Positions 898 to 21,526 of a stretch of DNA of 64,000 nucleotides are shown one piece after another. Position 1 is the stretch's first letter. Every line of letters begins with the position of its first letter. The notes under the pieces were generated by a model. The model worked only from the letters and a program-made list of their open reading frames with translations. It searched no databases and was not told the origin of the DNA. The stretch comes from Hydrogenispora ethanolica. Lineage in GTDB: Bacteria > Bacillota > UBA4882 > UBA8346. The translations under genes and the position numbers were made by a program. The DNA is taken from positions 54,709-118,708 of the forward strand of contig NZ_SLUN01000018.1 in assembly GCF_004340685.1 (NCBI RefSeq), written 5' to 3'.

Positions 898-1563
898 TCA
901 ATGAATTGTATCCAAAAATACTACATTATGTTTGATGGCGATTCGTACCAGACCGGCAGTGTCATGCACATTCAGTTTACTCATCATTCTGGCCCGGTGT
1001 TTCTCAACGGTTTTAACAGTAATATTTAGCAATGAAGCTATCGAGTTGTTGGTATGGCCTTCCGCTACCAATTGTAGGACTTCCATTTCCCGCGAAGAAA
1101 GAATCGTATCCAGTTCGGTTTCGGTATTCGAGGCAGTAGGATTAAAAATCTCGGAAATTAATGGGGCAGAAACAATGGGAGTGATAAAAATCTCGCCTCG
1201 TTTCGCCGCCTTAATCGCTAATATGAGTTCTTCAGTCACCGAACGTTTCAATAAATAACCTTTAGCTCCATTGCGCAGGGATTGTCGGACAAGGGACAGA
1301 TCCGAATACATGGACAGCACGATAACTCGGGTTGGGACATCGAGCATCTTGATCTTTTGAATGGCTTGGGTCCCATTCAATCGTGGCATGGCAATATCCA
1401 TCAGCACCACATCCGGTACCAACTTCATCACCATATCCACTGCCATCTGTCCGTCCTCAGCTTCGCCTACAACCTTGATACCAGTTTCTTTCTCTAACAA
1501 AGCTTTTATTCCTTGCCGCACCAAGTGATGGTCTTCGGCAATGAGGACACTAACCATGATCAT
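898..1563 (-). CDS. Two-component response regulator, NarL/FixJ (LuxR) family: REC domain plus LuxR-type HTH
   Basis: N-terminal receiver (VLIAEDHHLVRQG...VLMDIAMP). C-terminal LuxR-type HTH (SSREMEVLQLVAEGHTNNSIASLLNITVKTVEKHRARMMSKL). Confidence 0.85.
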   Translation of the reverse strand: MIMVSVLIAEDHHLVRQGIKALLEKETGIKVVGEAEDGQMAVDMVMKLVPDVVLMDIAMPRLNGTQAIQKIKMLDVPTRVIVLSMYSDLSLVRQSLRNGAKGYLLKRSVTEELILAIKAAKRGEIFITPIVSAPLISEIFNPTASNTETELDTILSSREMEVLQLVAEGHTNNSIASLLNITVKTVEKHRARMMSKLNVHDTAGLVRIAIKHNVVFLDTIH

Positions 1564-1644
1564 CCTCCAGGGTAGTCATCGCAGGGATTGTTCTCTTTCT
1601 CGATTGGATATACAATTTTTGAAATGCGACTCATATTATTCTAC

Positions 1645-1672
1645 AGGAAATAAACAGCCCTTCAGGGCTGTT
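1645..1672 (-). terminator. Candidate terminator after the CheY-like regulator gene
   Basis: Perfect hairpin AACAGCCCT-tc-AGGGCTGTT at 1653-1672, followed on the minus strand by TTATTTCCTG. Confidence 0.35.
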
Positions 1673-1748
1673 GGCTGCTTGATGGGTAATTTTATCCTCT
1701 AATTTGGAAAGGTCGACACGAGACTCATCCCACATGCTATGGTTCAAT

Positions 1749-2159
1749 CTAAATATTGTTGTGGGTCATGAGCAAACCCAATTTCCGCATGACTTCCAAT
1801 AATTTCCCCGTATCGATTGGTTTGGCGGCATAAGCTTCGCAACCGGTGTCAAAGGCCTCAAAGACATTATTAGGCTCATTCAAGGCCGTTGTCATAATCA
1901 CCTTGACCCGGTTTTGGTCCGGAATGCCTCGTTGGTTCTCAATTCCGCGAATCGTCTTTAAGGCTTTATAGCCGTCCACTTTGGGCATCATAATATCCAT
2001 ACAGATTAAATCATAGGGTTGACCTTCATCCCAAGCCATCAAGAAAGCTTCCACTGCTTCCATGCCATTCACAGTGATATCGCAATCACCGTACATTGTT
2101 AAAAACTTAAATAAAAATTTTCTGCTGGCTAAATCGTCCTCAACAATCATAATCCGCAT
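1749..2159 (-). CDS. Single-domain CheY-like response regulator
   Basis: 136 aa; MRIMIVEDD...DLICMDIMMPKVDGY...KVIMTTA receiver signature. Confidence 0.85.
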   Translation of the reverse strand: MRIMIVEDDLASRKFLFKFLTMYGDCDITVNGMEAVEAFLMAWDEGQPYDLICMDIMMPKVDGYKALKTIRGIENQRGIPDQNRVKVIMTTALNEPNNVFEAFDTGCEAYAAKPIDTGKLLEVMRKLGLLMTHNNI

Positions 2160-2240
2160 GGTGAGAACCCCCTTTCATTTATCACAGCGCAACATTCAAT
2201 CATTATGTGTCAAACCAATTCGAGCAAGCGGAATCGCCTC

Positions 2241-5200
2241 TTATTCAGCTCTATGTAAATACTGCTCCAGTTTATCATAGCACTCTTTAATTTCAAGACA
2301 TTGTTCTTTTCGCACTGCCATTTCCATCTTAAAGGCAAGTTGCTTCAAGATATCATCCTTTTCGTTAACGGCAGCTACTTTTAAATGATGAGCGATGTCT
2401 TCCATAGTTGCATAATCTTCATGATTAAAAGCAGCCTCGAAATTTAGGAGAAACCGCTTCTTACTGTCATCCGGTTGGATTTTTTCTGGTTCCCATTCTT
2501 TTGAAAGGTCTTCCGCCTCGGAATTTTTCTGGTATTTTGCCGCTTCAACGAAACAGAGTTCAGCAATGTTTTTTGAAAGGTCGTAGATGGAAACCGGTTT
2601 GGTAACCAAGCCATCCATGCCTGCAGCCAGAAACTTTTTGGTATCGTCCGAAAAGGCATGCGCCGTTAAAGCTATAATTGGGATGTGCCCTCCGGCTTCC
2701 GCTTCCAGTTCTCGGATTCGGCGGGTCGTTTCCATGCCTCCCATGCCCGGCATTTGGATGTCCATCAAAATAAGATTATAACTGTTTCGTGTCAATTTAT
2801 GGAGAGCCTCTATCCCTTCCGTGGCGACATCGACTTTTATCCCAATGCGCTGTAACATCTTCGCAACGGTTGCCTGATTAATCGGATCGTCCTCCACTAG
2901 CAGCACATGCAACTGTGCCGAGCCGAGGTCAAGATAATCGGGAAGGCTGGCTTTCTGGGGCGGTGAGTCTTGAGCATCAAGCGTAACCGGAACAGAAAAA
3001 TAAAAAGTACTGCCCCGATCTTTTTCACTGTATACCCCAATTTCTCCGCCCATCATGTTTACCAACCGTTTGGCAATCGCAAGTCCCAGGCCGGTCCCGC
3101 CGAAACGGCGCGTAATTGATCCATCCACTTGGCTGAATGTTTGAAATAGGCGATTCATTTCAGACTGTTCGATTCCTATTCCGGTATCACTGACTTCAAA
3201 CCGAAGAAACACACTATCATTCCGGTCATAACTATGATAGACTGCTAGCGTTACCATCCCAGTCTCAGTAAACTTCACCGCATTGGATAGCAGATTATTC
3301 AGCACCTGTAGCAGGCGGAGCGGCGCACCGATTAAGGAACGTGGGGTTCGGGGGTTGACCTCAACGGTTAACTCCAATCCTTTTTTTAAAGCACTTGAGA
3401 GATGGGCTTTGAGCGCCTTATGAACTAATTCATCCAAATCAAAAGGAATGAGTTCGATTTCAAGTTTCCCTGCTTCAATTTTAGAGAAATCAAGGATATC
3501 ATTTATTACATTCAATAAAGTCCCGGCACAATTCTTGGCAATCAAAAGGTTTTCACGCTGGTCCCGCTCCAGGCTAGTTAAAAGAGTCAAATCGATCATT
3601 CCCGTAATTCCGTTCAGTGGCGTCCTGATCTCATGACTCATATTGGCCAGGAATTCCGTTTTAGCCCGATTCGCTGCCTCGGCGGTCTCTTTCGCCTGTT
3701 TCATTTCGGCCTCAGCCTGTTTACGCCCGCTGATGTCGGATATTACGACCGCAAAATAACCCGGCTGCGGACTATATGCCGAAATGGATACCCAGCCGCT
3801 GCTCAGTTCCGATTGAGAAGTATCCAGTTTAATACTCTCACCTGTAAGTGCCACCATCCCAAAGATGCGAATCCGCTCCGCAACAATCGGCGCCGATTCG
3901 GGGATTATCTCCGTAAGGCGTTTACCGATCAACTGTTCTCGATTCCAGCCCGTCAATTTTTCGAAAGCAGCATTCACTTCTAAAAAAACATAATCTATTG
4001 GATTTTGTTGCTCGTCAAATACAACTTGATGGTAAGCAAAACCATCCGACATATTGGCAAATAAAGAAGAATATTTTTCTTGACTCGCCCGCAGTTGAGC
4101 TTCGGCATTTTTCCTATACGTAATATCGCGCGCAATGCCGGTGCTTCCTACAATCCGTCCATCTTCCGCAAAGATTGGAGTTTTGATGACTTCAAACCAG
4201 CGTTCATCACCGCCACGCACCCTGATTTTTTCTTCCGATCCAAATTGCCGGCCAAAATATACCACTTCACCATCGCCGTTCATTAAACTTTTGGCAAGCT
4301 GCTCCGGCCACAACTCAGTGTCTGTCTTCCCGACAACTGCTTCGGGGTGAACTCCCAGCAAAGAGCCGAACCTTTCATTTACGGCAATATAATGTCCCTC
4401 TTCATTTTTCAACCAAGCTAAATCGGGGATATTATTCAAAATTGCCTGTTGAAGTCGCTCTTTTTCCAAGACCAACTCCTCTATTCGCTTAATACGAGTT
4501 ATATCCCGAAATACGACGACTACTCCAAGGACAGTATCGGTTTGATTTTGTATCGGAGCGTTACTCGCAGATATGTAACGAATTGTCCGGTCTCTGGCCA
4601 CTAATGCCGTATGTTTTGGAAGTCCCACCTTCGTCCGGTTCTCAAAAGCTATTTGCATGGGATCAGTGACCGGTAGCCCCGTTTTGTAATTGATGATTTT
4701 AAAAATCACATTGGCGGGTTGATGAATGGCTTCCTCCAGCGTCCAGCCAGTCAATTCCTCAGCAACTTTATTAATAAAAATAACATTCAATCGATCATCG
4801 GTTACAATTAATCCATCTCCGATAGAATCCAATAAAGAATGTATCGGTTCCTTATTTGAACGAGTGTGATGACTACCTGATTTTAAGCGATTTCGTAGCA
4901 AAGATTCTCGTAATGCATGTTGAAGTACTCTCGAACGATGCGGAAGCTGATTTGGAAAAAAACAATCATAATAAGAGAATGAAAACTGAAAATTCTCAGC
5001 TTGCAAATTCCTACTCAATAAGAGCACAATTGCCTCTACTGCGTCTTTTACGAGTGGAGAGAGCAACGAATCGTCGGGAAAAAGATCGATATTCAGCACT
5101 ATCAAATCCCAAAGGCGATTGGAAATTGCGCTTTTTAAAGCCGAATTATCATCCACCTGGTACACCGTTATGGTAATACCTTCTTGAGCAGCTGCTTCAG

Positions 5201-5261
5201 CCACTCTATCCGCATCATTTTTTTGGTCGCTGGCGATTAAAACCTGCAAAACTTCAAACAC
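2241..5261 (-). CDS. Soluble multi-PAS hybrid sensor histidine kinase (pseudo-receiver / PAS x3-4 / HisKA / HATPase / REC / Hpt-like C-terminus), module Che-B
   Basis: H-box ANMSHEIRTPLNGITGMIDL. HATPase G-boxes (DTGIGI, GGTGLGLAI). Receiver HVLLVEDDPINQ...LILMDIQMPGMGG. C-terminal HHLKVAAVNEK resembles the Hpt HxLKGxxxN motif. No transmembrane segment. Confidence 0.85.
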   Translation of the reverse strand: MFEVLQVLIASDQKNDADRVAEAAAQEGITITVYQVDDNSALKSAISNRLWDLIVLNIDLFPDDSLLSPLVKDAVEAIVLLLSRNLQAENFQFSFSYYDCFFPNQLPHRSRVLQHALRESLLRNRLKSGSHHTRSNKEPIHSLLDSIGDGLIVTDDRLNVIFINKVAEELTGWTLEEAIHQPANVIFKIINYKTGLPVTDPMQIAFENRTKVGLPKHTALVARDRTIRYISASNAPIQNQTDTVLGVVVVFRDITRIKRIEELVLEKERLQQAILNNIPDLAWLKNEEGHYIAVNERFGSLLGVHPEAVVGKTDTELWPEQLAKSLMNGDGEVVYFGRQFGSEEKIRVRGGDERWFEVIKTPIFAEDGRIVGSTGIARDITYRKNAEAQLRASQEKYSSLFANMSDGFAYHQVVFDEQQNPIDYVFLEVNAAFEKLTGWNREQLIGKRLTEIIPESAPIVAERIRIFGMVALTGESIKLDTSQSELSSGWVSISAYSPQPGYFAVVISDISGRKQAEAEMKQAKETAEAANRAKTEFLANMSHEIRTPLNGITGMIDLTLLTSLERDQRENLLIAKNCAGTLLNVINDILDFSKIEAGKLEIELIPFDLDELVHKALKAHLSSALKKGLELTVEVNPRTPRSLIGAPLRLLQVLNNLLSNAVKFTETGMVTLAVYHSYDRNDSVFLRFEVSDTGIGIEQSEMNRLFQTFSQVDGSITRRFGGTGLGLAIAKRLVNMMGGEIGVYSEKDRGSTFYFSVPVTLDAQDSPPQKASLPDYLDLGSAQLHVLLVEDDPINQATVAKMLQRIGIKVDVATEGIEALHKLTRNSYNLILMDIQMPGMGGMETTRRIRELEAEAGGHIPIIALTAHAFSDDTKKFLAAGMDGLVTKPVSIYDLSKNIAELCFVEAAKYQKNSEAEDLSKEWEPEKIQPDDSKKRFLLNFEAAFNHEDYATMEDIAHHLKVAAVNEKDDILKQLAFKMEMAVRKEQCLEIKECYDKLEQYLHRAE

Positions 5262-5297
5262 GGCTTCACCTTCCGCTTTGAGTTCCCAAACCCATGT

Positions 5298-6329
5298 CTA
5301 TAGGTTGTTGACACAGGTTTCGATCGCTTTCGCCATCTCTCCTAGCGGTACCTGCCTCTCCACTGCGCCGATTTCAAAAGCGACCCGCGGCATACCATAC
5401 ACCACACTGGTACTCTCATCCTGACCGAGAGTCCGACTCCCCTTTTTACGCATTTCAAGCAATCCTTTGGCGCCATCATACCCCATCCCTGTAAGAATAA
5501 CCCCCACCGAATTCTTACCAGCGTGATCTGCGACGGAGTGAAACAAAACATCGACCGAGGGACAATGTCCGTTCACCTTGTCCCCTTTAAAGCATTCAAT
5601 AAAATAAGATTCGCCGCCTCTTTTAATTTTCATTTGAAAATCCCCTGGCGCAATCAAAACCCGCCCCGGAAATACACGGTCGCCGTTTTCCGCTTCTTTT
5701 ACCTCGACTTGACAAGAGTTATTCAACCGTTCAGCATACATTCTGGTAAAAACCGGCGGCATATGTTGAACCACAACCGTTCCTGGCATATTGCGCGGAA
5801 AAGCCTGCAAAATATGGGATAAAGCTTCGGTTCCCCCGGTTGAGGCTCCGATGGCGATTAGTTTATCGGGCCGACCTTGAATCACATTCTTTACTTCATG
5901 GAACTTGGGGTCATGCTTCCAACTTCCTACCTTAGCAATCGAAGCAATTTTAATCTTTACAATCAGTTCGTTAATGAGTGATTCCATGCTACGACCAATG
6001 GAAGTATCCGGTTTGGTTACAAAATCAACTGCTCCAGCTTTGAGCGCTTCAAAAACGCTATCGCTCACAGCACTAACCATTACTACTGGTAAAGGATATT
6101 GGGGCATCAACTGTTTTAAGAAATCGATCCCGTTCAATTTCGGCATTTCAACGTCTAAAGTCAAAACTTGCGGCTGCAAGGCAATGATTTTTTCCTTAGC
6201 TTCATACGCATCGCTCGCTGTCCCCACAACCTGAATTCCTGAATCCGCCGCGAGACCTTGAACTAAGGTTTCCCGAAAAACCAAGGAATCATCAACGACC
6301 AAGACTTTAATCCGCTGTTTGATTGTCAC
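5298..6329 (-). CDS. cheB: Chemotaxis protein-glutamate methylesterase CheB (REC + CheB methylesterase), module Che-B
   Basis: KVLVVDDSLVFRE receiver; GASTGGTEAL and the catalytic region of the CheB family. Confidence 0.9.
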   Translation of the reverse strand: MTIKQRIKVLVVDDSLVFRETLVQGLAADSGIQVVGTASDAYEAKEKIIALQPQVLTLDVEMPKLNGIDFLKQLMPQYPLPVVMVSAVSDSVFEALKAGAVDFVTKPDTSIGRSMESLINELIVKIKIASIAKVGSWKHDPKFHEVKNVIQGRPDKLIAIGASTGGTEALSHILQAFPRNMPGTVVVQHMPPVFTRMYAERLNNSCQVEVKEAENGDRVFPGRVLIAPGDFQMKIKRGGESYFIECFKGDKVNGHCPSVDVLFHSVADHAGKNSVGVILTGMGYDGAKGLLEMRKKGSRTLGQDESTSVVYGMPRVAFEIGAVERQVPLGEMAKAIETCVNNL

Positions 6330-6334
6330 TGGCT

Positions 6335-7165
6335 TTATTCCTTTCTATAGACCGAAGGACGAATATATTTGTAAGCGGTTTCCTCTCGCCGTAAGGATTC
6401 CGAAAGACCGATAAATAAATACCCGCCCGGTTCAGTATGATCATAAAAACGATTCACAAGTTGCCGACGAGTCTCAGAGTCGAAATAGATCATAACATTA
6501 CGGCAGAAAATGACCTGAAATCTCTTTTTAAATGGAAATACTTGATTCATCAGATTAAACTGCCGGAAAATTACATTTTCCCGAATTTCCTCAACAACAT
6601 GACTCGAATCGGAGTCATGTTTTTTGAAGTATTTTCGTCTCCATTCTTCTGGCAAGACCTGTAATTGTTCGTTGGTATATATCCCTTGTGTCGCAGTCTC
6701 TAAGACTTTTTCCGAAATATCCGTAGCTAAAATACGACTATCCCATAACTTTTGTTCCATCCCGAGAAAGTCTGCGATAATCATTGCCAAAGTATAAGGT
6801 TCTTCTCCACTAGAGCATCCTGCACTCCAGATTCGTAAATCTTTATTGGAAGCGGTCTTTTTTAAACATGGGAGCACTTGAGTTTGAAAGTAATTAAAAT
6901 GTTCTTTCTCCCTCAAAAAAAAAGTATGATTGGTCGTAATCCGATTAATTAATGTTGTAATCGCTTTTCCCGTTTGATCAGCTTTCACATATTTTATATA
7001 TTCCGAAAAAGAATTGAGATTTTTTTCTGCTAAAATATGCTGTAGCCTTCCGGTTACCAACGTTTTTTTTTCAAATAAATTAATACCATAATTGTTTTTG
7101 ATAAAACCAACAAGCTCAACGAACTCATCTTCGTTAATTGAAACCATGATCAAGCCCCACCACAA
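6335..7165 (-). CDS. cheR: Chemotaxis protein methyltransferase CheR, module Che-B
   Basis: SAM-dependent methyltransferase CheR signature ([19 protein letters not shown]...[10 protein letters not shown]). Confidence 0.9.
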   Translation of the reverse strand: MWWGLIMVSINEDEFVELVGFIKNNYGINLFEKKTLVTGRLQHILAEKNLNSFSEYIKYVKADQTGKAITTLINRITTNHTFFLREKEHFNYFQTQVLPCLKKTASNKDLRIWSAGCSSGEEPYTLAMIIADFLGMEQKLWDSRILATDISEKVLETATQGIYTNEQLQVLPEEWRRKYFKKHDSDSSHVVEEIRENVIFRQFNLMNQVFPFKKRFQVIFCRNVMIYFDSETRRQLVNRFYDHTEPGGYLFIGLSESLRREETAYKYIRPSVYRKE

Positions 7166-7222
7166 TTATAACGTATTACGTCGGGTTGTTTTCACTTTTA
7201 TTTAATAACGAGAAAAATCAAC

Positions 7223-7726
7223 TTAAGAAAGCTCGGCCAAGTTTTTAACTTCATCATCGTTAAGTAATTTTTTGCAGTCCAACAACAGTTTTACTTGATT
7301 TCCTATTTTGCCCAACCCTTTAATGTATCGGGTCTGAAATCCAGTGCTGGGATCGGGAGGAGGCACAATTTCTTCTTCCGGTATCGTAACAACCTCAAGT
7401 ACCTTATCAACGATCAAACCAATCGTAATTTCTTCTATATCAACTACAATAATGCAAGTCCGCTCATTATACTCCAGAAAATCTTTCTTAAATCGAATTC
7501 TTACGTCCATCACCGGAATGATTTTGCCTCGTAAATTAATAATTCCCTTGATATAATCCGGAAGTTCGGGTACCTGTGTAATCGCTTGAATGCCGATAAT
7601 CTCCGTAACAAATTTTATCTCTATTCCATAATCTTCTTTTCCGATAGAGAACGTCAGAAACCGCCCTTTTTGCGTATCTTCTTGCAATTCCATTGATTCA
7701 TCGACCATTCCAATCATTTCTACCAC
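7223..7726 (-). CDS. cheW: Chemotaxis coupling protein CheW, module Che-B
   Basis: 167 aa; CheW-like domain (FLTFSIGKEDYGIEI...[15 protein letters not shown]). Confidence 0.9.
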   Translation of the reverse strand: MVEMIGMVDESMELQEDTQKGRFLTFSIGKEDYGIEIKFVTEIIGIQAITQVPELPDYIKGIINLRGKIIPVMDVRIRFKKDFLEYNERTCIIVVDIEEITIGLIVDKVLEVVTIPEEEIVPPPDPSTGFQTRYIKGLGKIGNQVKLLLDCKKLLNDDEVKNLAELS

Positions 7727-7789: not shown

Positions 7790-9841
7790 TCAATAATGCA
7801 AAAACCCCGCTACATCCAAAATCAAACTAATACTGCCGTCCCCCAATAGAGTACAACCCGCAACCCCACTTACTTTCTTAATGTACCGTGGAAGATTCTT
7901 CACCACCACTTGCTGTTCGCCCAGTAATTGATCAGCAAATAAACAAATTACTTTTTGATCATTTTCCACCATCACAATAATTCCTTCCGATAATTCTTCT
8001 ACAACGGTAGGAATTTTATAAAATTGATGCAGTCGGAGAATGGGATGGCATTGCCCGCGAAGCAGGATCATTTCATTTCCATCCGGGTCATGAATAATGT
8101 CTTCACTTTTTACTCGAAATGACTCTCGAATGGTTGTCGTTGGAACAGTAAAAAGCGATTCTCCCACTTGAATCGACATTCCATTAATAATTGCTAAAGT
8201 CAACGGAATCTTTAATGAAATTACAGTTCCCATTCCCGGTGTGCTATCAATGAAAACGGTTCCGCCTACCTTCTCAATGTTCTTCACGACTACATCCATG
8301 CCTACACCGCGACCCGAAAATTCCGTTACCTTTTCCTTGGTCGAAAATCCTGGCAAAAGAATAAATGAATAAATTTCGCGATCCGTTAATTCGCTTTCAG
8401 GCTTAAAGACCAATCCATTTTCTTGAGCTTTAGCCAAAATCTTTTCTTTGTTTAATCCGCGACCGTCATCCTGAACAATGATCCACACTTCATTTCCGGA
8501 GTTTTTCGCTTCCAATGTTATTTTTGCTGTTTCCGGTTTCCCTTTCGCCAGACGTTCATTGGGAGGTTCTATACCATGATCAATCGAATTTCGGATTAAA
8601 TGCATCAGCGGATCAGATAGATTTTCAATGATATTCTTATCAACTTCAGTTTCTTCACCGATTAGCGCAAGCTCAACATCTTTATTAAGCTTGTGAGACA
8701 TATCCCTTACTATCCTCTGCATTTTTAGGAATGTATTCGTCAACGGAACCATTCGGATGGACATTACGATATCCTGCAATTCATTCGTGATTTTCCGAAG
8801 TTGTCCAGAGGCTTTATGATAGTTTTCCAGCGGTAAGTTTTCTAGTTCCGGATGATGAGTCACCATTGCTTCGGCAATCACCAACTCTGCAACCAGATCC
8901 ATTAATTTATCCAGTTTATCGACATTAACGTTGATAAATTTCTGGGTTACCGAATTAAGAACATGGTTTTTCTCAGCCTCTCCACCATGCTTCGTTTCAT
9001 TTGGATGAGAATTGCCCGTATCATTACTGGACGCATCTTTTTGGATCTTTGATATCGCGGGAGTATCGATATCCGGAAGAATGGTCACTTCTTTGAGAAA
9101 CGGCGTCTTATTTAGAAAATCACGAAGCTCTTCAGGAGTGAGCTGACTCTGTATCAAAATATGCAGACCGTTCTTGCGGATCTCCCCAATTGTATCCTGA
9201 TCGTCGATGATAACCTCAGGACTGGTTTCGACTACCTCCGCTTTCTCTTTTAACTGATACAAAAGGGTGAAGGCTCGAACATCCTCCATTTCACAGCCTT
9301 CCATAAAACAAAGTTCGATCCGGAAACGGTTTTGATTATCCTTTTTTTCTGCATTCTGGTCGGAACCAATATAAAACTTTTGCGATTCTGCCTTTTTTGT
9401 ATCATTTTTGTTTTCAGGAGGCGCTCCTGACGCATCGGATTTCAATGTTGCCAAAAACTCTTTAATCGTTTGGATTAACCCGGATGAATCTCCGTCGGGT
9501 TCTTCTCCGTTTTGAAGCTTGTTAATCTCATTTTTGGTAAAATCAACCCCAGCCAAGACTAAATCGCTCAATTTCATATAATCTACCTGGCTTGGCTTTT
9601 CCTCGCGTAAAAAATAAAAGAGATCTTCGATCGCATGAGCTAAATTCGAAATATTATTAAATAGCATCATGGCCGAGGAACCTTTAATGGTGTGCATGAT
9701 TCGGAAAATTTCATTAATCGATGAGTCAAACCCATTGCCTTGTTCACTATTGAGAATAAGTTGTTCCAGCTGCTCAATGAGTTGTGTGGTTTCAAAAATG
9801 AACAAATCCAACATGGGTTCCCGCTCAAAACTGCTCCCCAT
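7790..9841 (-). CDS. cheA: Chemotaxis histidine kinase CheA, module Che-B
   Basis: Hpt P1 (HTIKGSSAMM), dimerisation domain, HATPase (GRGVGMDVV) and a C-terminal CheW-like P5 domain. Confidence 0.9.
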   Translation of the reverse strand: MGSSFEREPMLDLFIFETTQLIEQLEQLILNSEQGNGFDSSINEIFRIMHTIKGSSAMMLFNNISNLAHAIEDLFYFLREEKPSQVDYMKLSDLVLAGVDFTKNEINKLQNGEEPDGDSSGLIQTIKEFLATLKSDASGAPPENKNDTKKAESQKFYIGSDQNAEKKDNQNRFRIELCFMEGCEMEDVRAFTLLYQLKEKAEVVETSPEVIIDDQDTIGEIRKNGLHILIQSQLTPEELRDFLNKTPFLKEVTILPDIDTPAISKIQKDASSNDTGNSHPNETKHGGEAEKNHVLNSVTQKFINVNVDKLDKLMDLVAELVIAEAMVTHHPELENLPLENYHKASGQLRKITNELQDIVMSIRMVPLTNTFLKMQRIVRDMSHKLNKDVELALIGEETEVDKNIIENLSDPLMHLIRNSIDHGIEPPNERLAKGKPETAKITLEAKNSGNEVWIIVQDDGRGLNKEKILAKAQENGLVFKPESELTDREIYSFILLPGFSTKEKVTEFSGRGVGMDVVVKNIEKVGGTVFIDSTPGMGTVISLKIPLTLAIINGMSIQVGESLFTVPTTTIRESFRVKSEDIIHDPDGNEMILLRGQCHPILRLHQFYKIPTVVEELSEGIIVMVENDQKVICLFADQLLGEQQVVVKNLPRYIKKVSGVAGCTLLGDGSISLILDVAGFLHY

Positions 9842-9912
9842 TTAGTTCACTCCTTATTTTAGCGAATTTACCGAATAAAATCCGGGCGGCCGCTGCTGAA
9901 ACATCGGTCGTC

Positions 9913-9936
9913 CGGATTAACGAATTTTTTAATCCG
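9913..9936. promoter_or_regulatory. Perfect 8-bp-arm palindrome CGGATTAA-N8-TTAATCCG in the cheA(Che-B) upstream region; candidate operator
   Basis: Seen directly. It lies in the 330-bp intergenic region between the hybrid kinase stop (10173) and the cheA start (9841). AATCCGG-like sequences recur three times nearby. Confidence 0.3.
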
Positions 9937-10172
9937 CAGGCCTGACTAATCAGCATCCTTGCCGAACAGGTTTTCTAAATATTATATCGACGTTACCTGT
10001 ATAATCTTAATAGCTTTATAGTTTTTCCTAAAGATCGTTTTTACATAGTAATGGCCAATATTGCTTATTCCGTATCAGACTTTGAAATAAACTCGCTTCA
10101 TGATATAGCATAATACGAAGACCACCGGATGATATATGTTACGAGCTAGAACAATTCCTACCTATCACCGAT

Positions 10173-13718: not shown

Positions 13719-13731
13719 TGCATTTCCATGC

Positions 13732-14784
13732 TTATCGATTACACGCCTCTACGAGGGCATGAGGAATCTCCGATAATGGCAGAATTCGAGAAACCGCACC
13801 AATAACAGCTGCCTCTTTGGGCATCCCATAAACCACGCTACTTGCTTCGTCCTGAGCGATGGTATAGGCGCCGGCCTTTTTCATCGCTAATAATCCCGTA
13901 GCGCCGTCTTTTCCCATTCCAGTAAGAATCGTTCCCACTGCATTCGCTCCGGCGTATTTGGCGACCGACTGAAACAGTACTTCAACCGACGGTCGTTGAT
14001 GAAAGACGAGCGGGCCGTCTTTGACCTCAACGTAATAATTGGCGCCGCTCCGTTTGAGGACCAAATGCTTATTTCCCGGAGCAATGAGCGCTTTCCCGGG
14101 TGTCACCGGTTCCTGATCCTCGGCTTCCTTCACTCGGATCCGGCATTGACTATCTAGCCTATCGGCAAAAGCTTTTGTAAAAAATTCCGGCATATGCTGA
14201 ACTATCAAAATTGGATGCATATCCGCAGGCAATTGAGTCAACAAAGCCTTCAAGGCCTCCGTGCCGCCCGTGGAGGCTCCGATTGCCAATATCTTAAAGG
14301 TGGTTTTCAGTAATGCGTTGTTGAATTGGTACTTCTGAGAGACTGCTTCCGAACGATTGAATTGCGTCGCAGAAATTGAAAATTTTCGCAGGCCGGCCAC
14401 TGCCTTAATTTTGTCGATCAATTGCGCGCTCATATCTTGCACCGAATAGGAAGAACCCGGCTTGGCAATAACTTCGGCTGCACCTAAATCTAAAGCGCGC
14501 AAGGCTACTTGCCCTCCTTTTTCAGCCAGGGAACTCACGATAATTACCGGCATCGGATGATAACGCATCAGTTTTTCCAAAAAGGTCAAGCCATCCATCT
14601 TTGGCATTTCGATATCCAATAGCAGTACATCGGGGTTCAACTGTACTATTTTGTCCCGGGCGATAAAAGGGTCGGGCGCTGTCCCGACTATCTCCAGCTC
14701 GGGATCTTTGGCTAGTTCGGTGCTGAAAACTTTCCGAACCATGGCTGAATCATCAACAATCAATACCTTAATCTTCCCTGCCAT
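13732..14784 (-). CDS. cheB: CheB methylesterase/response regulator, module Che-A
   Basis: KVLIVDDSAMVRK receiver; GASTGGTEAL CheB catalytic domain. Confidence 0.9.
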   Translation of the reverse strand: MAGKIKVLIVDDSAMVRKVFSTELAKDPELEIVGTAPDPFIARDKIVQLNPDVLLLDIEMPKMDGLTFLEKLMRYHPMPVIIVSSLAEKGGQVALRALDLGAAEVIAKPGSSYSVQDMSAQLIDKIKAVAGLRKFSISATQFNRSEAVSQKYQFNNALLKTTFKILAIGASTGGTEALKALLTQLPADMHPILIVQHMPEFFTKAFADRLDSQCRIRVKEAEDQEPVTPGKALIAPGNKHLVLKRSGANYYVEVKDGPLVFHQRPSVEVLFQSVAKYAGANAVGTILTGMGKDGATGLLAMKKAGAYTIAQDEASSVVYGMPKEAAVIGAVSRILPLSEIPHALVEACNR

Positions 14785-14785
14785 G

Positions 14786-15259
14786 TTATTTATACCAGTC
14801 GCTTTCCCACGCTTTATTTACTTTTGAAATGAAGATCTCTCCGGTAACAGTATTAAAGATAACTTTTCGGCTGATTGGACCGCCCGTATCCCGCGTGGCA
14901 ATCTCAATCCGATGCTTCTGTAAAATTTCTTCCGCAATCTTCGCATTCTCATTTCCAATCATGGAATTGAGGTGCAAATGCTGACCTCCGCCAACGATAT
15001 GCGCTTTCAATCCGGATCTTTCCGCGCCCATCTTCCGGAATAGGTGAATCATATAGGGAATGGAAAGATCCCCAAACCGCGCATTGCGTTCACCGCGTAA
15101 CGATCTGGCAAATAGGTAATGATTCATCCCGCCGATCCGTGGCGCCTCGCTCCAGATACAGACCGCTACGCAAGATCCGAGGACCGTCTGGATCAAATAC
15201 GGCTCAGGGGTTACAAAAATGAAGCCAGGCTGGAGAAAATAACTATTGAACCCTTCCAT
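14786..15259 (-). CDS. cheD: Chemoreceptor glutamine deamidase CheD
   Basis: 157 aa; LGSCVAVCIW CheD signature. Confidence 0.85.
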   Translation of the reverse strand: MEGFNSYFLQPGFIFVTPEPYLIQTVLGSCVAVCIWSEAPRIGGMNHYLFARSLRGERNARFGDLSIPYMIHLFRKMGAERSGLKAHIVGGGQHLHLNSMIGNENAKIAEEILQKHRIEIATRDTGGPISRKVIFNTVTGEIFISKVNKAWESDWYK

Positions 15260-15265
15260 ACCTAT

Positions 15266-15661
15266 TTAGTCGATCAATTGCATCTCGCGCAATTGCTGTA
15301 ACAGTTTGACTCGCTCAATCGGTTTTACGAGATAAGCCTCGCATTGTTCCTGAAATGCCTGCTTGATATTTTCATGATCATGCAAAGCGGTGGTCATAAT
15401 AATCTTGGCGCCATCTCCCCAATCGACGCTCATCTCCCGTTCAATCGCACGAATCGTCTTTAGAACCTCCTGTCCGCCCAGTTCCGGCATCATGATGTCC
15501 AAACAAATTAATTGGTATGGACTCTTTTCCTGCCAGGCAAGGCGGAACGCTTCGATCGCTTCCTTACCATTTACAGCAATGTCGCAAGGACCATAGGGCG
15601 CCAGAATGATCTGGAGCAAGCGACGGCTGACAAAATCATCTTCGACGATCAAGGTTTTCAT
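15266..15661 (-). CDS. cheY: CheY-like response regulator, module Che-A
   Basis: 131 aa; LIVEDD...LICLDIMMPELGG...IIMTTA receiver. Confidence 0.85.
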   Translation of the reverse strand: MKTLIVEDDFVSRRLLQIILAPYGPCDIAVNGKEAIEAFRLAWQEKSPYQLICLDIMMPELGGQEVLKTIRAIEREMSVDWGDGAKIIMTTALHDHENIKQAFQEQCEAYLVKPIERVKLLQQLREMQLID

Positions 15662-15708
15662 GATTCACACTCCCCGTAAAATGGCGCGATGAGTACTTCG
15701 CTACGCCG

Positions 15709-18351
15709 TCAGTTTTCAATTTTGAATAAATTCTCAACGTCCAGGATCATTGCCAGTTTCCCGTCGCCAAGGATAGAAACTCCGGAGGCGAATTTCTGTT
15801 CCTTAAATTCTCGATCGAGCGGCTTGACCACGACTTCCTTCCGGCCGGAAATGCCAGCGATCGGCAATGCCTTCTGGTGCTTATCCATTTCCAGTATGAT
15901 CACCAAACTATTCTCCGGTAAATGGTCCGGCTCCGCGACCCCAAAAGCTTTCGCAATCGGCACCACTGGCAGCACTTCATCCCGGACCTTAAAAAAGGCC
16001 CGTTTCCCTTTGATGAATATCCACTGCTCAGGACGGGGTTGAATAATCTGCTTTACATTCAAAGTCGGGATCACGCAGCGATAACCAAAAATCTCAGCGA
16101 TAATTCCATTTAGAGCTGCAAAATTGATGGGAATCTTGAGAATGAAGGTGCAACCCTTGGCCGGAAAGTTTCGCACTTCGATTTTGCCGCCGATCCGCGC
16201 CATTTCGGTCTTGACGACATCGAGACCGACTCCCCGGCCGGAGATATGGTTCACCTTTTCCGCCGTAGAAAAGCCGGGCAAAAAGATGAAGTCGACAATC
16301 TCCTCATCCCGGTATTTTTTGGCGGGATCGGCCAAGCCTTTTTCAATGGCTTTGGTGAGGATCCTTTCAAGCGACAAACCCCGTCCATCATCGGAAATCT
16401 CAATATAAATGTTGCCTTTTTTGTTATAGGCCTGAATTTTAACTTCTCCTTGCGGCGGTTTCCCGAGCTGGATTCTTTCCGCCTCGCTTTCAATCCCATG
16501 AGAGATCGAATTCTTGACCATGTGGAGCAATGGGTCCTGGATCTTCTCGGCGACACCGCGATCGATCTCCGTATCCTCTCCCAGCGCCAGATAGTTTACA
16601 TTTTTTCCAAGTTCATTAATGGCATCGCGCGCCACCCGGTTAATCTTTTGAAATGTCGCCTTTAACGAAACCATCCGCATCGACATGGACTGACTCTGAA
16701 GATCCTTGATCAGCCTTTCCATCCGTAACACTTTATTGACCAGTTCATCATTGGCATTAAAACGTTGCAACGCGGACTGTTCAATCTGTGCTTGCAATAT
16801 CAGCAGTTCACCAATTTTATCGACCATACCGTCGATCTTGTAGGTAGGGATGCGGGCAAATTCAGTTCCGGAAATTCCATTCAACCCATTGCGTTTGTTG
16901 GGTTCCGATGCCCGAGCGGGTTGACCCGGAGCTTCCGTTGGAGAACCTTTCCCCTCGCTCGGCTCATCCGAGGCATCCGGGACCAGGAGCGGCTGACGAT
17001 TGGCTTCCTGCTTTATGAACTGCTTTGCTGCTGGCGGCTCTTGGAGATTCGCCGTCGCAATCACGGCTTCGGCCGAAGAAACGCCCTTCGTACCCGATTC
17101 CAAGTCCTGCAGATGTTGTTCAATTTTCTTGGATAACTCCGGACCCGCTTGCTCGGATGTTTCCGTGATCAGCTGTCTGATCAGCTCGCCCGATATCAAA
17201 AGTCGTTCCAGTACAATTTGGTCAGTTTGGTGTTCCGCCTTCCGGATCTGATTCAAAAACCGCTTGGTATGATCGGTGATCTTTTTCACTGAGCCAAAAC
17301 CGATAAACCCCGCCAGACCGCCGATGGTATGAAACAGCCGGTAAATCCGGTAAAGAATCTCGGCGTTTCCCACGGGTCCTGCCAATTCCGACAGGCTAAG
17401 CTCTATTTTGCCAAGATACTCTTGCATTTCCGCCAAAAAATCCGCCCGAAATTCCCGGTCAATCTCAATTACTTGCGCAGGCCCGGCCGGTCCGTCAATA
17501 ATTTCCGCAACGAGTTGATCCACCTCATCCGACTCATTTGTGCCCTCCGCTTTTCGCTCCTGGGAAGTGACCAGGCGGAACGGATTGACGCTAGGAATGG
17601 TTCCAAAATTGGCTGGCAGGGGTTGAACTGAAACAATGATCTCCGTTTCGATAGCCAACGATTGAAGAATAGCGGCATCTTGCGATTGCGAAGCCAAAAT
17701 TACTACCAATTGTTCCGGCTCGTAGAGAAGATTACCCTCTTTAACCGCAGGCACTTCCGGGTCAGCCTTCAGCAATACTCCCTGATTCTCCAAGATCTGA
17801 TAAACAATCAGTGCCCTCACGGAGACAAGTTGCGTTTCCGGTTTAAAGGTAATTTGAACCTGATACAGCGAGTATCCTTGCGCTGCCAAATCCTGCGCTT
17901 GTTGGATGAGCTCCGGAGAGTCGAGAAACATTGGCTTTTCTATCCCGGATTGGGGCATTTCAAGTGGCTGCTGATTCGCCTGGATGATCTCGTGCAGATG
18001 CTTCATAATCTGATCCGACTTGAAATCGCCTTCATCCCCATTTTGAATCACCGATTCTAAACAATTCAGGAGAAAATCATGACAAACAAAGAGGAGCTCC
18101 ACCAGTTTGGCATCAACCTTAAGCTTTCCATCCCGAACATCATGTAATACATCCTCCATGCCATGGGCCATATTCTCCATCTTCATCAAGCCCATCATGG
18201 CGGAGGATCCTTTCATGGTGTGAACCACCCGAAAGATCTCATTGATGATTTCCTTGTTCTCCGGGTCCTTTTCAAGCTCCATCAAAGAATCATTCAGAAT
18301 ATCCAGGTGTTCCCTGGTTTCTCCGACAAATATCTCCGCCAGTTCACTCAT
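15709..18351 (-). CDS. cheA: Chemotaxis histidine kinase CheA (long form, 880 aa), module Che-A
   Basis: Hpt (HTMKGSSAMM), a long P2/linker, a second Hpt-like HTIGGLAGFIGF segment, HATPase (GRGVGLDVV), C-terminal CheW-like domain. Confidence 0.9.
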   Translation of the reverse strand: MSELAEIFVGETREHLDILNDSLMELEKDPENKEIINEIFRVVHTMKGSSAMMGLMKMENMAHGMEDVLHDVRDGKLKVDAKLVELLFVCHDFLLNCLESVIQNGDEGDFKSDQIMKHLHEIIQANQQPLEMPQSGIEKPMFLDSPELIQQAQDLAAQGYSLYQVQITFKPETQLVSVRALIVYQILENQGVLLKADPEVPAVKEGNLLYEPEQLVVILASQSQDAAILQSLAIETEIIVSVQPLPANFGTIPSVNPFRLVTSQERKAEGTNESDEVDQLVAEIIDGPAGPAQVIEIDREFRADFLAEMQEYLGKIELSLSELAGPVGNAEILYRIYRLFHTIGGLAGFIGFGSVKKITDHTKRFLNQIRKAEHQTDQIVLERLLISGELIRQLITETSEQAGPELSKKIEQHLQDLESGTKGVSSAEAVIATANLQEPPAAKQFIKQEANRQPLLVPDASDEPSEGKGSPTEAPGQPARASEPNKRNGLNGISGTEFARIPTYKIDGMVDKIGELLILQAQIEQSALQRFNANDELVNKVLRMERLIKDLQSQSMSMRMVSLKATFQKINRVARDAINELGKNVNYLALGEDTEIDRGVAEKIQDPLLHMVKNSISHGIESEAERIQLGKPPQGEVKIQAYNKKGNIYIEISDDGRGLSLERILTKAIEKGLADPAKKYRDEEIVDFIFLPGFSTAEKVNHISGRGVGLDVVKTEMARIGGKIEVRNFPAKGCTFILKIPINFAALNGIIAEIFGYRCVIPTLNVKQIIQPRPEQWIFIKGKRAFFKVRDEVLPVVPIAKAFGVAEPDHLPENSLVIILEMDKHQKALPIAGISGRKEVVVKPLDREFKEQKFASGVSILGDGKLAMILDVENLFKIEN

Positions 18352-18554
18352 GGGGTGAACCTCCTTTAATTAACAAATTTGCAACATCTCGATAGGATGG
18401 AATAAACTTTCCTTGCAACTTTTTGCATTCCTAAAGCCGAACGCAAACGAAATCCAAAACGGCATTATTTCATCCTATTCCTGCGGTATTGAGTTGAATG
18501 AAATCCCTCAATTTTACCATCATGTCCTGCTTTCGGGACTTGATGCATCCCAAT

Positions 18555-19412
18555 TCAACTAATGTACCGCCCGCCGGCCTTCGTATTCTTCCGGTAGATG
18601 GTCGGTTGCAAATACTGAAAATGATGTCGCTTATTGGTCAGACTTTCGGAATGGCCGATAAAAAACAGGCCGCCCGGGATTAAAACATCGTAAAAACGAT
18701 TTACCAAATCTTGCTGGGTCTGCGGATCAAAATAAATCATTACATTCCGGCAAAAAATCATGTCAAACTTATTTTGAAACGGAAAATGATCCATCAAATT
18801 AAACTGGCGAAAGGTAATCAAGTCTTTTATTTCCTGGGTAACCTTCCAGGCATCGCGCTGCCGGCTAAAATAACGCTGCAAATAATAGGGATTGATCACC
18901 GCCACATCTGCCGCGTTGTAAACGCCTCGTTGAGCGGCGACCAAAACCCGGTGACTCAAATCGGTGGCTAAGATTTTAACCTGGATCGCCGCCGGCAAGG
19001 TTTCCCGCAATACCATCGCCAGCGTATAAGGTTCTTCCCCGGTGGAACAACCGGCGCTCCAAACCCGGATCATCCCTTCCTTCTGAATCCGCGGATTGAG
19101 ATCCATGATATTTTGCAGCTGTTTTTGAATAAACTCAAAATGGTGATTTTCACGAAAAAAATCAGTCTTATTAATCGTGATCTCATCGGAAAAACGGACC
19201 CAGTCTTCAGGTTTCCCGTCCCGCGTCAAACGTTGATAATACTCATCGTATGACGCGATCCCCTGCTGGCGCATTAACTTATCCAATTTCGTTTTCAGCA
19301 TTTCTTTCTTGACCGATTGAATATGGATCCCCAACTGGTCATAGATTAGCCGGCTGAATTTTTGAAATTGCCCTTCATTCAAATGATTCGTTGGGTCCAT
19401 ATCAAAAATCAC
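18555..19412 (-). CDS. cheR: CheR methyltransferase, module Che-A
   Basis: [18 protein letters not shown]...[10 protein letters not shown]. Confidence 0.9.
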
Positions 19413-21036
19413 TCAGATCGTCTTTTAACGGGATGACTTGTTCGGGATCCACAATTTGCGTCGTCTTTTTGGAAAACGAGTTTTTCTCGGCAGTATCCTG
19501 AAGCATCTTTCCCGGAGCGGAGTTCCCGCCAGACTTCGGCCGTTGCAAAGAAGGCTTGGCGGCCAAACGCTCCGTCGGGTAACCCGCATCGGCGGCGGCG
19601 AGGCCGTCCACCAATCCTTTGAGCTGCTGTACAATTTCCCGGGTATTATAGACTTGGGCATTGAGTTCTTCGGCGGCGGAAGCGCTTTCCTCGGCTCCCG
19701 CTGCATTGGACATGGTGACCGTCTCCATCTGGGCAATGGCCTTATTCACCTGCATAATCCCCTGAGACTGCTCTTGACTGGCGACCACGATCTCTTCCAT
19801 CAATTCATTCACTTTTTTGGCTTGTTGAGTAATGGAGACCAGCGCCTCTTGAACCCGCTCGGAAACGGTCACGCCCTTGGCAGCCAATTCAATATTGTTT
19901 TCAATGATGGCAGCGGTATCTTTAGCCGCCTGGGCGCTGCGCTGAGCCAGATTCCGGACCTCCTCGGCCACGACGGCGAATCCCATGCCGGCTTCCCCGG
20001 CGCGCGCCGCTTCCACAGCCGCATTCAGGGCTAGAATATTGGTCTGAAAGGCAATCTCATCGATGACCTTAATAATCTTGGCAATCTGGTCGCTGGAGCG
20101 TTTTAACTCGTTCATCGAAGTCATCATCTGCTCCATCTCGTGGTTGCCGCGTTCCGCAAATTCAATGGTCTGCTTGGACAACAAACCCGCCTGGTGAGTA
20201 TTTTCCGAGTTCTGCTGGACCATCGAGGATGTCTGTTCCAGCGTAGTGGATGTTTCCTGGATCGCGGCGGCCTGTTCCGAGCTGCCTTCCGCCAATTGCT
20301 GGCTGGTGGAGGAGAGTTGAGTGGAAGCTGCGGCAATTTGGGTCGCACTCTCGGAAAGACTGTCCACGCTATTTTTGATGGACTTGCTAATGGAGGTACT
20401 TAGGAAATAGCCCAATCCCAAAGATAATAAAAGTCCCAGCGCAATGCTGATAACAATGATGATCGAAGTAGTTCTTTGTTGGTTATCCGCAGCGCTGCTT
20501 TCGTTCTTTGCCGCTTGCCGATTCATGGCAATCAGCTTCGCCAGTATTTCCTCGGATTTTAGAAAATTCTGGCGGGCAATCGTATAGGAGATCTCCAGCG
20601 CTTTCTGTTTTGAAGCGGTAGTATTCAAAAGAGCTTGCTCAACTACTTGTTCATGACTTTCTTTCCAAATACTCCATACCGATTGCAAAGCCACCCATAG
20701 TTCTCGTTCCCCTTTCAATGAAATGAGCGGCTCGTATTCTTTCGAACATTGCTCGATGCGTTTCCAAATCGTCGTCATCCGGTTCTTCTGAAACTCCATC
20801 TCATCCCGGTTGGGTGCAATCAGCATTGAACGCTCGGCTGCCAGAATACTATTCATTCCCGATTCGATCGTCAAGAGGTTTTGAACGGAAGGAAGCATAT
20901 TATTACTGATCTGATTTAAATTTTCACCGACCCTCTGGAGACCACCCCATCCGATGATTCCTAAGACAAGCGTGATTAAAGAGACCAATAGAAAACTAAG
21001 GATCAATTTGGCACTGAGTTTCAATCGTTTAAGCAT
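19402..21036 (-). CDS. mcp: Methyl-accepting chemotaxis protein: 2 TM, periplasmic 4HB-like sensor, HAMP, MA domain
   Basis: Two hydrophobic segments flank a periplasmic domain of about 150 aa. The C-terminus carries the conserved MCP signalling hairpin (...[29 protein letters not shown]...). It overlaps cheW by 8 nt and cheR by 11 nt, consistent with translational coupling. Confidence 0.88.
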
Positions 21037-21526
21037 TTTCGACCACTCCTTTAGTTTCTTTTAAACTGGTCAGCTCTTCCTGAGCCAACATTTGATCCAT
21101 TTCCAGCAAGACAATCACTTTATTTTTTAACTTCCCGATCCCGGTCATGAATTTGCCGTCAATGACGCTGTCGTATTGCTCGGGGGGTTCGACATCGCCA
21201 GCCTGGACATTGACAACTTCTAAGACCATATCCACCACGAGGCCGAAGAGCCGTTGCTGGCCGCCGGATTGAATCTCCACCACGATAATGCAAGTCCGGT
21301 CGGAATACAGCTGTTCGGGAAGGCCGAACTTCAAGCGCAGGTCGACGACAGGCACGATTTTACCGCGCAGGTTAATGATTCCTTTGATAAACACGGGGGT
21401 TTTAGGGATCGGTGTGATCTCCATCATTCCGATGATCTCTCTAACTTGCCGAATCGGGATTCCATACCCTTCGTTCCCCAGGCCGAAGGTCAGATATTTT
21501 CCTCCGTTCATCTCGCTCTCCTCCAA
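21029..21526 (-). CDS. cheW: CheW coupling protein, module Che-A
   Basis: 165 aa CheW domain ([16 protein letters not shown]...[15 protein letters not shown]). Confidence 0.9.

Follow-up and report, generated by a model that had tools for sequence, protein, structure and literature searches.

Two tandem chemosensory modules with embedded multi-PAS phosphorelay kinases in Hydrogenispora ethanolica and their putative wiring

What do two neighbouring sets of chemosensory genes control in Hydrogenispora ethanolica, a Bacillota species of uncertain placement? We analysed a stretch of 64,000 nucleotides (nt) from this organism (assembly GCF_004340685.1, contig NZ_SLUN01000018.1, positions 54,709 to 118,708), referred to as the window. 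The 15 genes in question all lie on its minus strand between positions 898 and 21,526, and their domains were confirmed with Pfam. They comprise two modules of chemosensory (che) genes, Che-A and Che-B, each followed by a soluble hybrid kinase with PAS domains and a histidine phosphotransfer (Hpt) domain; at the window edge stands a NarL/LuxR-family response regulator, here called LuxR. A previous interpretation, made from the letters of the window (the sequence-only reading), took LuxR for the output of Che-B. We favour a different explanation, with a probability of about 0.55: three units, in which CheA and a PAS phosphorelay converge on receivers of a subfamily named REC13x, and in which LuxR is served by an adjacent HisKA_3 kinase. 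The three units, which appear separable and share one strand, are on balance Che-A, Che-B and an accessory block that carries the locus approximately 4 kb beyond the left edge of the window.

Phosphorelay kinases and REC13x receivers

The hybrid kinase of Che-A, HK1 (10,173–13,718, minus strand, 1181 aa), has the Pfam architecture PASx3-HisKA-HATPase-REC-REC-Hpt, with a match to Hpt at E = 9e-8 and no usable match for residues 1–160. Its counterpart in Che-B, HK2 (2241–5261, minus strand, 1006 aa), was resolved with Pfam and profile comparisons as pseudoREC-PASx3-HisKA-HATPase-REC followed by a divergent Hpt. Pfam scored this Hpt below threshold (E = 0.054) and returned no match for the HK2 N-terminus. 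An alignment of the C-terminal tails of the HK2 family matched the HPt structures 7c1i (E = 1.5e-5) and RcsD/YojN 1sr2 (E = 3e-3) with the His in register, as well as the Hpt of HK1 (hhalign E = 8e-5); the motif of the HK2-type domain is AH.lK...AFKiElAaRkg. The family N-terminus aligned to CheY (hhalign E = 3.5e-5). As HK2 has Asn at the phospho-Asp site and Pro at the beta5 Lys site, we regard this domain as a pseudo-receiver; some family kinases, distant members among them, have an N-terminal receiver in which the Asp is kept (as in P0136, P0137, and P0141). SHEIRTP H-boxes and DxxMP receiver motifs are present in both HK1 and HK2, the H-box His, receiver Asp and Hpt His all being there, and a Kyte–Doolittle scan found no hydrophobic segment in either protein. 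Judged by these signatures, both are predicted to be soluble multi-PAS kinases that run a His-Asp-His relay, which bears out the previous description of them as fully cytoplasmic proteins with PAS and Hpt domains.

Each module also encodes a single-domain receiver (Pfam Response_reg): REC131 in Che-A (15,266–15,661, minus strand, 131 aa) and REC136 in Che-B (1749–2159, minus strand, 136 aa), the latter directly after HK2. The two are 51% identical. REC131 matched all 24 REC136-family regions (median identity 48%), whereas canonical CheY matched none, and REC136 reached only about 50 bits to any solved receiver. By sequence, then, REC131 and REC136 are assigned to one receiver subfamily, REC13x, that is distinct from canonical CheY.

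A REC13x gene is usually the gene after the kinase; in Che-A of the window and in L088 and L099, it lies directly after cheA (L-numbers, such as L081 to L174, are our labels for the relative loci and contigs compared with the window). The kinase and receiver genes overlap at their stop and start or are 4–80 nt apart in L166, L169, L170, L171, L173, and L174. In L166, a Bacillota metagenome-assembled genome (MAG) with a Che-A-type cluster 40% identical to that of the window, a PAS-HisKA-HATPase kinase gene overlaps the REC131 gene and lies between cheA and cheB.

Upstream in L166 (2008–6019), a second PAS hybrid kinase, a REC130 receiver and a PAS-GGDEF diguanylate cyclase are encoded in series, which hints that the REC13x subfamily may connect to cyclic di-GMP signalling in some organisms.

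The chemosensory modules and the accessory block

A metagenome search with CheA2, the CheA of Che-B, yielded 80 loci at 52–58% identity, many from records named digester, bioreactor or fermentation. CheA2 is also 55–57% identical to CheAs source-named Acetivibrio, Ruminiclostridium, Anaeroselena, and Anaerosolibacter; CheA2 and HK2 are each 100% identical to a protein that NCBI attributes to H. ethanolica. Mapping 18 proteins of the region onto the 80 loci revealed a recurring order: a cheY resembling the 118-aa receiver described below, cheA, cheW, mcp of the 36H class (mcp, methyl-accepting chemotaxis protein, MCP), cheR, cheB, cheD in some, a PAS hybrid kinase and a REC13x receiver resembling REC136. 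The identity of REC136 to the post-kinase gene was 59–71% in related clusters and 62–90% in L168–L174. Among the 27 loci evaluable for this part (at least 4.5 kb after cheB), 15 had a hybrid kinase after cheB or cheD, 17 had a REC136-like gene, and 14 had the two together. Of 10 kinases sampled, nine had the architecture (PAS)n-HisKA-HATPase-REC with a tail of about 110–130 aa; that of L128 was without a REC match. The nine-gene cluster is also present in L171 (a MAG), L173 (its CheA named Ruminiclostridium cellobioparum) and L174 (Anaeroselena agilis), and in L171 the kinase right after cheD is of the form REC-PAS-HisKA-HATPase-REC-Hpt. The junction of cheB with a hybrid kinase, which had been described as unusual and as occurring twice in the window, thus turned out to be conserved both in the 15 metagenome loci and in these three genome or MAG loci.

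An MCP of their own was found in the Che-B-type clusters of L170, L171, L173, L174, and most metagenome loci, and was missing in those of L163/L168 and L164/L169. Most of the family MCPs aligned with the MCP of Che-A, Mcp1, without gaps. On this comparison of sequences, Che-B is best described as a receptor-less copy of a cluster that is widespread in Clostridia and Negativicutes. Our literature search found no paper on this cluster type, on che clusters with Hpt hybrid kinases in Clostridia, or on Hydrogenispora chemotaxis.

Che-B begins with cheA2 (7790–9841, minus strand, 683 aa, domains P1–P5), and continues with cheW2 (7223–7726; Pfam CheW E = 4e-37), cheR2 (6335–7165), and cheB2 (5298–6329), all on the minus strand and identified with Pfam. 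No mcp lies between cheA2, cheW2, and cheR2, which are separated by 57–63 nt, and no MCP other than Mcp1 is encoded within the window. The reading frames and catalytic motifs of Che-B are all intact.

Che-A begins with cheW1 (21,029–21,526, minus strand; Pfam CheW E = 1e-38), which overlaps mcp1 by 8 nt. The transmembrane chemoreceptor Mcp1 (19,402–21,036, minus strand; Pfam 4HB_MCP_1 and MCPsignal) has two transmembrane segments in the Kyte–Doolittle scan and is without a HAMP domain; its 36H signalling domain begins about 10 residues past the second of these segments and is followed by a C-terminal tail of about 75 aa. The alignment of Mcp1 with residues 267–512 of Escherichia coli Tsr was gapless, whereas gaps were needed for the 44H receptor TM1143, and we accordingly place Mcp1, by sequence, in the 36H class. 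Its tail ends in DLSDF, which recalls, but does not match, the xWxxF pentapeptide that tethers CheR and CheB.

The remaining genes of Che-A, likewise on the minus strand, are cheR1 (18,555–19,412; methyltransferase, Pfam CheR_N and CheR at E = 4e-66), cheA1 (15,709–18,351), REC131, cheD1 (14,786–15,259; deamidase, Pfam CheD E = 8e-22, with the Cys/His motif visible in the sequence), cheB1 (13,732–14,784; methylesterase, Pfam Response_reg and CheB_methylest), and HK1. CheA1 (880 aa) has the layout P1-P2-second Hpt-P3-P4-P5, detected with Pfam as Hpt (two stretches), P2, H-kinase_dim, HATPase_c, and CheW; in the second Hpt, after P2, HTIGG replaces the usual HT.KG. Full-length homologues of CheA1 numbered only five among 5.8e9 proteins (70%, 57%, 57%, 40%, and 39% identity), and the next-best matches were ordinary Lachnospiraceae CheAs at about 32%. 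Positional orthologues of HK1 follow cheB in L163 and L164. Taken together, the sequences point to Che-A being a complete but rare chemosensory operon and a divergent relative of the Che-B family.

In both modules, CheR and CheB scored below E = 1e-60 in Pfam (all four proteins); CheB1 and CheB2 both show the receiver Asp and the motifs GASTGG, QHMP, and DG. CheA1 and CheA2 both carry P1, P3, P4, and P5, and their cores match the CheA structures of E. coli and Thermotoga maritima at E < 1e-70; a Response_reg domain was found by Pfam in neither. A cheZ, cheC or cheX was found neither in the two modules nor in the canonical clusters of the family. For both modules, the proposed order of genes and their domains are thus real, the Hpt and the pseudo-receiver of HK2 by profile comparison and the others by Pfam. 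The overlap of stops and starts described for both modules stands only for cheW1/mcp1 and for mcp1/cheR1 (11 nt, depending on the start chosen). Gaps in Che-B are 5–81 nt, and others reach about 490 nt: 203 nt between cheR1 and cheA1, 331 nt between HK1 and cheA2, 185 nt between REC136 and LuxR, and about 490 nt after LuxR. The spacer between the modules (9842–10,172, minus strand) holds a promoter-like site at 10,010–9981 (TTAAGA-18-TATAAT, 10 of 12 positions; a consensus match only).

LuxR (898–1563, minus strand) combines REC with a GerE helix-turn-helix (Pfam, GerE E = 5e-19). A terminator-like hairpin (1653–1672, minus strand; 8-bp stem with five GC pairs and a T-rich tail; weak) lies between REC136 and LuxR. 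Positions 1–406 (minus strand) encode the first 135 residues, with a PAS domain, of a kinase of the form PAS-GAF-HisKA_3-HATPase whose gene extends past the edge of the window; in tblastn, they match the kinase of L082 at 97.8%. The continuation was read from the near-identical contigs L081 and L082, located by exact-protein look-ups, which extend past the left edge. In L082, LuxR is followed by a 529-aa PAS-GAF-HisKA_3-HATPase kinase, a 118-aa receiver, and a 174-aa CheD (Pfam; HisKA_3 E = 6e-14); AsnC, LysE, an SLH protein, and an extracytoplasmic function (ECF) sigma factor are encoded further out. The 118-aa receiver scored 125 bits to T. maritima CheY versus 61 bits to E. coli CheY, and is by this measure a canonical CheY of the T. 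maritima type. AT-rich spacers of about 350–490 nt, none with an Rfam match, separate LuxR, the HisKA_3 kinase, cheY, and cheD (window 407–897; L082 10,667–13,860), each of which may have its own promoter.

The absence of cheY and cheD from Che-B and its ending in a transcription factor, both stressed by the sequence-only reading, therefore hold only inside the window: because the kinase, cheY, and cheD follow LuxR, they are artefacts of the window edge, at which a transcription factor had been misread as a pathway output. With a cheY and a cheD 2.5–3.5 kb downstream, and an MCP of their own in most orthologous clusters, the circumstance that had been named in advance as refuting the sequence-only reading, an MCP and a cheY located elsewhere, largely applies.

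The usual partners of NarL-type regulators are kinases of the HisKA_3 family. The window/L082 and L168 have both LuxR and the HisKA_3 kinase, whereas L169 and L170, in which Che-B, HK2, and REC13x are retained, have neither; no LuxR-like gene occurs at this position in the conserved order of the Che-B family or in L171, L173 or L174. Given the family pairing rules and this co-occurrence, LuxR is most likely the partner of the adjacent kinase and not the output of Che-B. In overview, the anatomy that had been described is real and the gene-regulatory interpretation is not supported; on sequence grounds, the locus represents a conserved Che variant into which a phosphorelay is embedded and of which one lineage has two copies, distant paralogues of each other.

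Proposed wiring, rival explanations and known systems

We infer the steps of the wiring from gene adjacency and family rules. CheA1 and CheA2 would be controlled by arrays of 36H receptors, with Che-B borrowing Mcp1 or orphan 36H receptors, and CheR, CheB, and CheD, in whose sequences the catalytic motifs are intact, would adapt these receptors. Each soluble PAS kinase would sense a cytoplasmic cue (redox, energy or metabolite) and run a His-Asp-His relay, for which the domains and key residues are present. The conserved and often overlapping adjacency of the genes suggests that the relay ends on the neighbouring stand-alone receiver, REC13x. Because in Che-A, and likewise in some relatives, REC13x is also encoded by the gene that directly follows cheA, this receiver is the likely node at which receptor-controlled CheA and the PAS phosphorelay join. 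The output would come from single-domain receivers that act on other proteins, with the flagellar motor or the array, and not transcription, as the most likely target, and LuxR would respond to the adjacent HisKA_3 kinase. A phosphorelay into or out of the Che core, as originally suggested, is still the best reading. That the locus exemplifies an undescribed chemosensory type of many Clostridia and Negativicutes, in which convergence on REC13x brings gradients and energy or redox state to one node and the tandem pair of Hydrogenispora shares one HAMP-less 36H receptor, is a broader proposal that we put forward tentatively.

Several observations weigh against the favoured explanation. In a genome search, the matches of HK1 were generic hybrid kinases (29–50% identity), with a che gene nearby in only two of 80 loci, and REC131 is separated from HK1 by cheD and cheB. 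About half of the Che-B-family loci are without the kinase, which marks it as accessory rather than core. Of 21 family tails, two lack the Hpt His and another two have it displaced by one residue. The promoter and terminator scans gave counts no higher than in shuffled sequence, so individual sites are weak hints. Finally, Hpt domains phosphorylate NarL-family regulators elsewhere (BvgS/BvgA, RcsD/RcsB, GacS/GacA), and transfer from HK2 to LuxR is thus chemically plausible.

This last point is the textbook precedent for the view that Che-B is a system of the alternative cellular function (ACF) type with gene-regulatory output, CheA2 or the Hpt of HK2 phosphorylating LuxR. That view also gains from the position of LuxR, which in both the window and the closest relative, L168, shares the strand of REC136 and lies 185 nt downstream of it, and from the absence of a receptor gene in Che-B. 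The next gene, however, encodes a HisKA_3 kinase, and both it and LuxR are missing in L169 and L170 even though cheA2, cheB2, HK2, and REC13x occupy the same site there. Together with the lack of LuxR from the conserved order and from L171, L173, and L174, the intervening hairpin, the canonical cheY and cheD just downstream, and the absence from CheA1 and CheA2 of the C-terminal REC seen in WspE, FrzE, and CheA3, this leads us to consider a Wsp-, Frz- or Che3-like output through LuxR unlikely. A reversal of flow, in which phosphate on REC13x or CheY received from CheA drains through the Hpt and REC of the kinase in place of CheZ, CheC or CheX, with PAS gating the rate, seems to us improbable as well, if the best placed of the alternatives. 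Hpt relays are reversible, as in the decay of the ArcB/ArcA signal, and the lack of detectable cheZ, cheC, and cheX and the position of REC13x directly after cheA in Che-A and some relatives would fit such a sink. A precedent is the REC domain of CheA3 in Rhodospirillum centenum, a phosphate sink (PMC3868531). A pure sink, however, would have no need of the H-box and the ATPase domain that are intact in both kinases, and phosphatases may be encoded elsewhere in the genome.

The same organism provides the model for a hierarchy in which CheA phosphorylates a receiver of the hybrid kinase and so switches the kinase-to-REC13x pair on or off, since CheA3 phosphorylates REC1 of CheS3 (PMC3868531). 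The intact Asp in the N-terminal receivers of P0136, P0137, and P0141 and the REC-first kinase right after cheD in L171 would suit this hierarchy, but it is excluded for the N-terminus of HK2, where the receiver is degenerate (Asp to Asn, Lys to Pro), and HK1 and most family kinases have no N-terminal receiver; we rate it below the LuxR output. Least probable of all is that these genes are mere neighbours, the PAS kinases and REC13x being independent two-component systems and Che-B a decaying, receptor-less remnant. Che-B does lack an mcp and has the lowest GC content of the region, the nearest relatives of HK1 are not linked to che genes, and P0137, a close homologue of HK2, is an orphan. Against this, the kinase/REC13x pair recurs beside cheB or cheD in many unrelated contigs and in three further genome or MAG loci, the frames and catalytic motifs of Che-B are intact, and its proteins are 64–91% conserved in three related genomes, save HK2 (46–66%).

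The preferred reading, convergence of CheA and a PAS relay on REC13x, was compared with studied systems. By analogy, the closest is R. centenum Che3 (CheA3/CheS3/CheY3), likewise a che cluster with a second soluble PAS kinase, whose receivers include a degenerate one, and a stand-alone partner receiver. In that system, CheA3 acts on REC1 of the PAS kinase CheS3 and CheS3 acts on CheY3, a departure from the CheA-to-CheY paradigm of E. coli (PMC3868531). CheS3, of the HWE type, has a pair of receivers at its N-terminus and lacks an Hpt, whereas the kinases here are HisKA proteins with a C-terminal REC-Hpt; CheA3 is a CheA-REC hybrid, whereas the CheAs here are without REC; and REC1 of CheS3 can be phosphorylated, whereas the N-terminal receiver of HK2 cannot and HK1 has none. 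R. centenum belongs to the Alphaproteobacteria, whereas the present system is from Bacillota. The F7 class (Pseudomonas aeruginosa Che2, Vibrio cholerae cluster III, E. coli) also has 36H receptors, which F7 preferentially uses according to MiST3 (PMC6943060). The order cheY-cheA-cheW-mcp-cheR-(cheD/cheB) of the Che-B family resembles ancestral, stage 1–2 F7 clusters (PMC7184735), a likeness in gene order and receptor class only. It differs from F7 in the position of cheD after cheB, in lacking an Aer2-like PAS-HAMP receptor as well as any STAS or phosphatase genes, and in its Thermotoga-type cheY. CheA bit scores against E. coli and T. maritima (336 versus 311 for CheA2, 254 versus 251 for CheA1), with CheY favouring Thermotoga, leave the choice between F1 and F7 ambiguous. 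We know of no F7 system that carries a PAS hybrid kinase and an extra receiver.

ArcB, BvgS, TorS, and RcsC/RcsD resemble the kinases here in having HisKA-HATPase-REC-Hpt on one polypeptide with all phospho-acceptors present; those of the window differ in being fully soluble, with PAS as the only input, inside che operons and next to a single-domain receiver instead of a transcription factor. The REC-GerE regulator beside a HisKA_3-HATPase kinase recalls NarX/NarL, DesK/DesR, and LiaS/LiaR, except that here a soluble kinase takes PAS and GAF input, a gap of about 490 nt divides the two genes, and cheY and cheD follow. Wsp, Frz, and Myxococcus xanthus Che3 likewise use chemosensory cores with extra two-component parts, but are marked by a CheA-REC hybrid, by a conserved output regulator (WspR, FrzZ, CrdA) or by both, and here there is neither.

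Chemosensory pathways outside model Proteobacteria and Bacillus are mostly unstudied. The present analysis defines a recurrent, apparently uncharacterised cluster of anaerobic Bacillota that combines che genes, a PAS hybrid kinase with a divergent Hpt and a dedicated receiver, and its presence in cultured genera makes it genetically testable. Should REC13x prove to be the point where CheA and the PAS relay meet, this would be a second, independent wiring of Che to two-component signalling after R. centenum Che3, and would offer strict anaerobes a means of energy or redox taxis.

Relation of the modules, variable site and surroundings

The recurrence of similar genes in Che-A and Che-B had been attributed to an ancient module duplication. 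The kinship stands: a 36H receptor, a REC13x receiver, and a PAS/Hpt kinase after cheB are common to Che-A and the Che-B family, and sequence comparison indicates related systems of one kind that are distant paralogues. A local tandem duplication was rejected. The proteins of the two modules are 33–51% identical, whereas those of Che-B have median identities of 58–67% to family orthologues in other organisms, and CheA2 ranked only 24th among 121 matches of CheA1. Since the identity of Che-A proteins to the same family genes is lower (38–48%) than that of Che-B proteins, Che-A branches outside the whole Che-B family.

The content of the site varies among relatives, three of four states lying between the same tRNA_edit gene and asnC-lysE. 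The window and L163/L168 hold Che-A, Che-B, and the block of LuxR, HisKA_3 kinase, cheY, and cheD; L164/L169 holds Che-A and Che-B only; and L170 holds Che-B only. In L168, flanked by tRNA_edit and an SLH gene, asnC-lysE is missing and the SLH gene directly follows the block. The Che-B proteins of L170 are nearer to those of the window than are those of the tandem-bearing L164/L169. In all three tandem genomes, Che-B is without its own mcp, which suggests, in a small sample, that it uses Mcp1 or orphan 36H receptors.

L170 has a 1013-aa MCP gene between cheA and cheW (4510–7551), not in the usual position between cheW and cheR. Its product has the layout 4HB-HAMP-PAS-HAMP-MCPsignal and a 14-residue indel relative to Mcp1; by sequence, it probably belongs to another heptad class and was separately acquired.

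The che region (window 1–22,000) is GC-poor, at 42% for Che-B (36–38% for cheW2 and cheR2) and 47% for Che-A, compared with 53.5% for the rest of the window (22,000–64,000). The che genes of relatives are also GC-poor relative to their flanks, more weakly: the dip at the same site is 0–7 points, with none for Che-B in L169. We therefore rejected the idea that the low GC content stems solely from a recent horizontal acquisition, all the more as the site from tRNA_edit to AsnC/LysE holds Che-B in both L169 and L170. A transfer RNA (tRNA) scan of the window found none, and no tRNA or integrase lies at the border of the che region; despite the low GC content, there is thus no signature of a tRNA-linked island. 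An Rfam scan of the whole window gave no match, and no riboswitch or small RNA was detected in the long spacers.

The rest of the sequence is in keeping with a diderm, flagellated firmicute. A set of late flagellar genes at 49,321–54,240 (minus strand) encodes FliW, FlgK, FlgN, and a protein of 770 aa that has a flagellin N-terminal domain and is FlgL or flagellin-like; flagella are therefore encoded by this organism, at a distance of about 28 kb from the che modules. LpxK and a Kdo transferase (40,397–42,813, minus strand) are, with the SLH protein of the extension (L082 15,766–17,028), hallmarks of diderm, lipopolysaccharide-bearing Bacillota. The window also encodes argCJBD-argG and RecD2. 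An EtfA fused at its N-terminus to a 4Fe-4S ferredoxin domain is encoded close to an acyl-CoA dehydrogenase (33,451–36,773, minus strand), an arrangement that is Bcd/Etf-like and possibly electron-bifurcating. A Rex-like redox-sensing repressor (Put_DNA-bind_N and CoA_binding) is encoded at 60,036–60,662 (minus strand).

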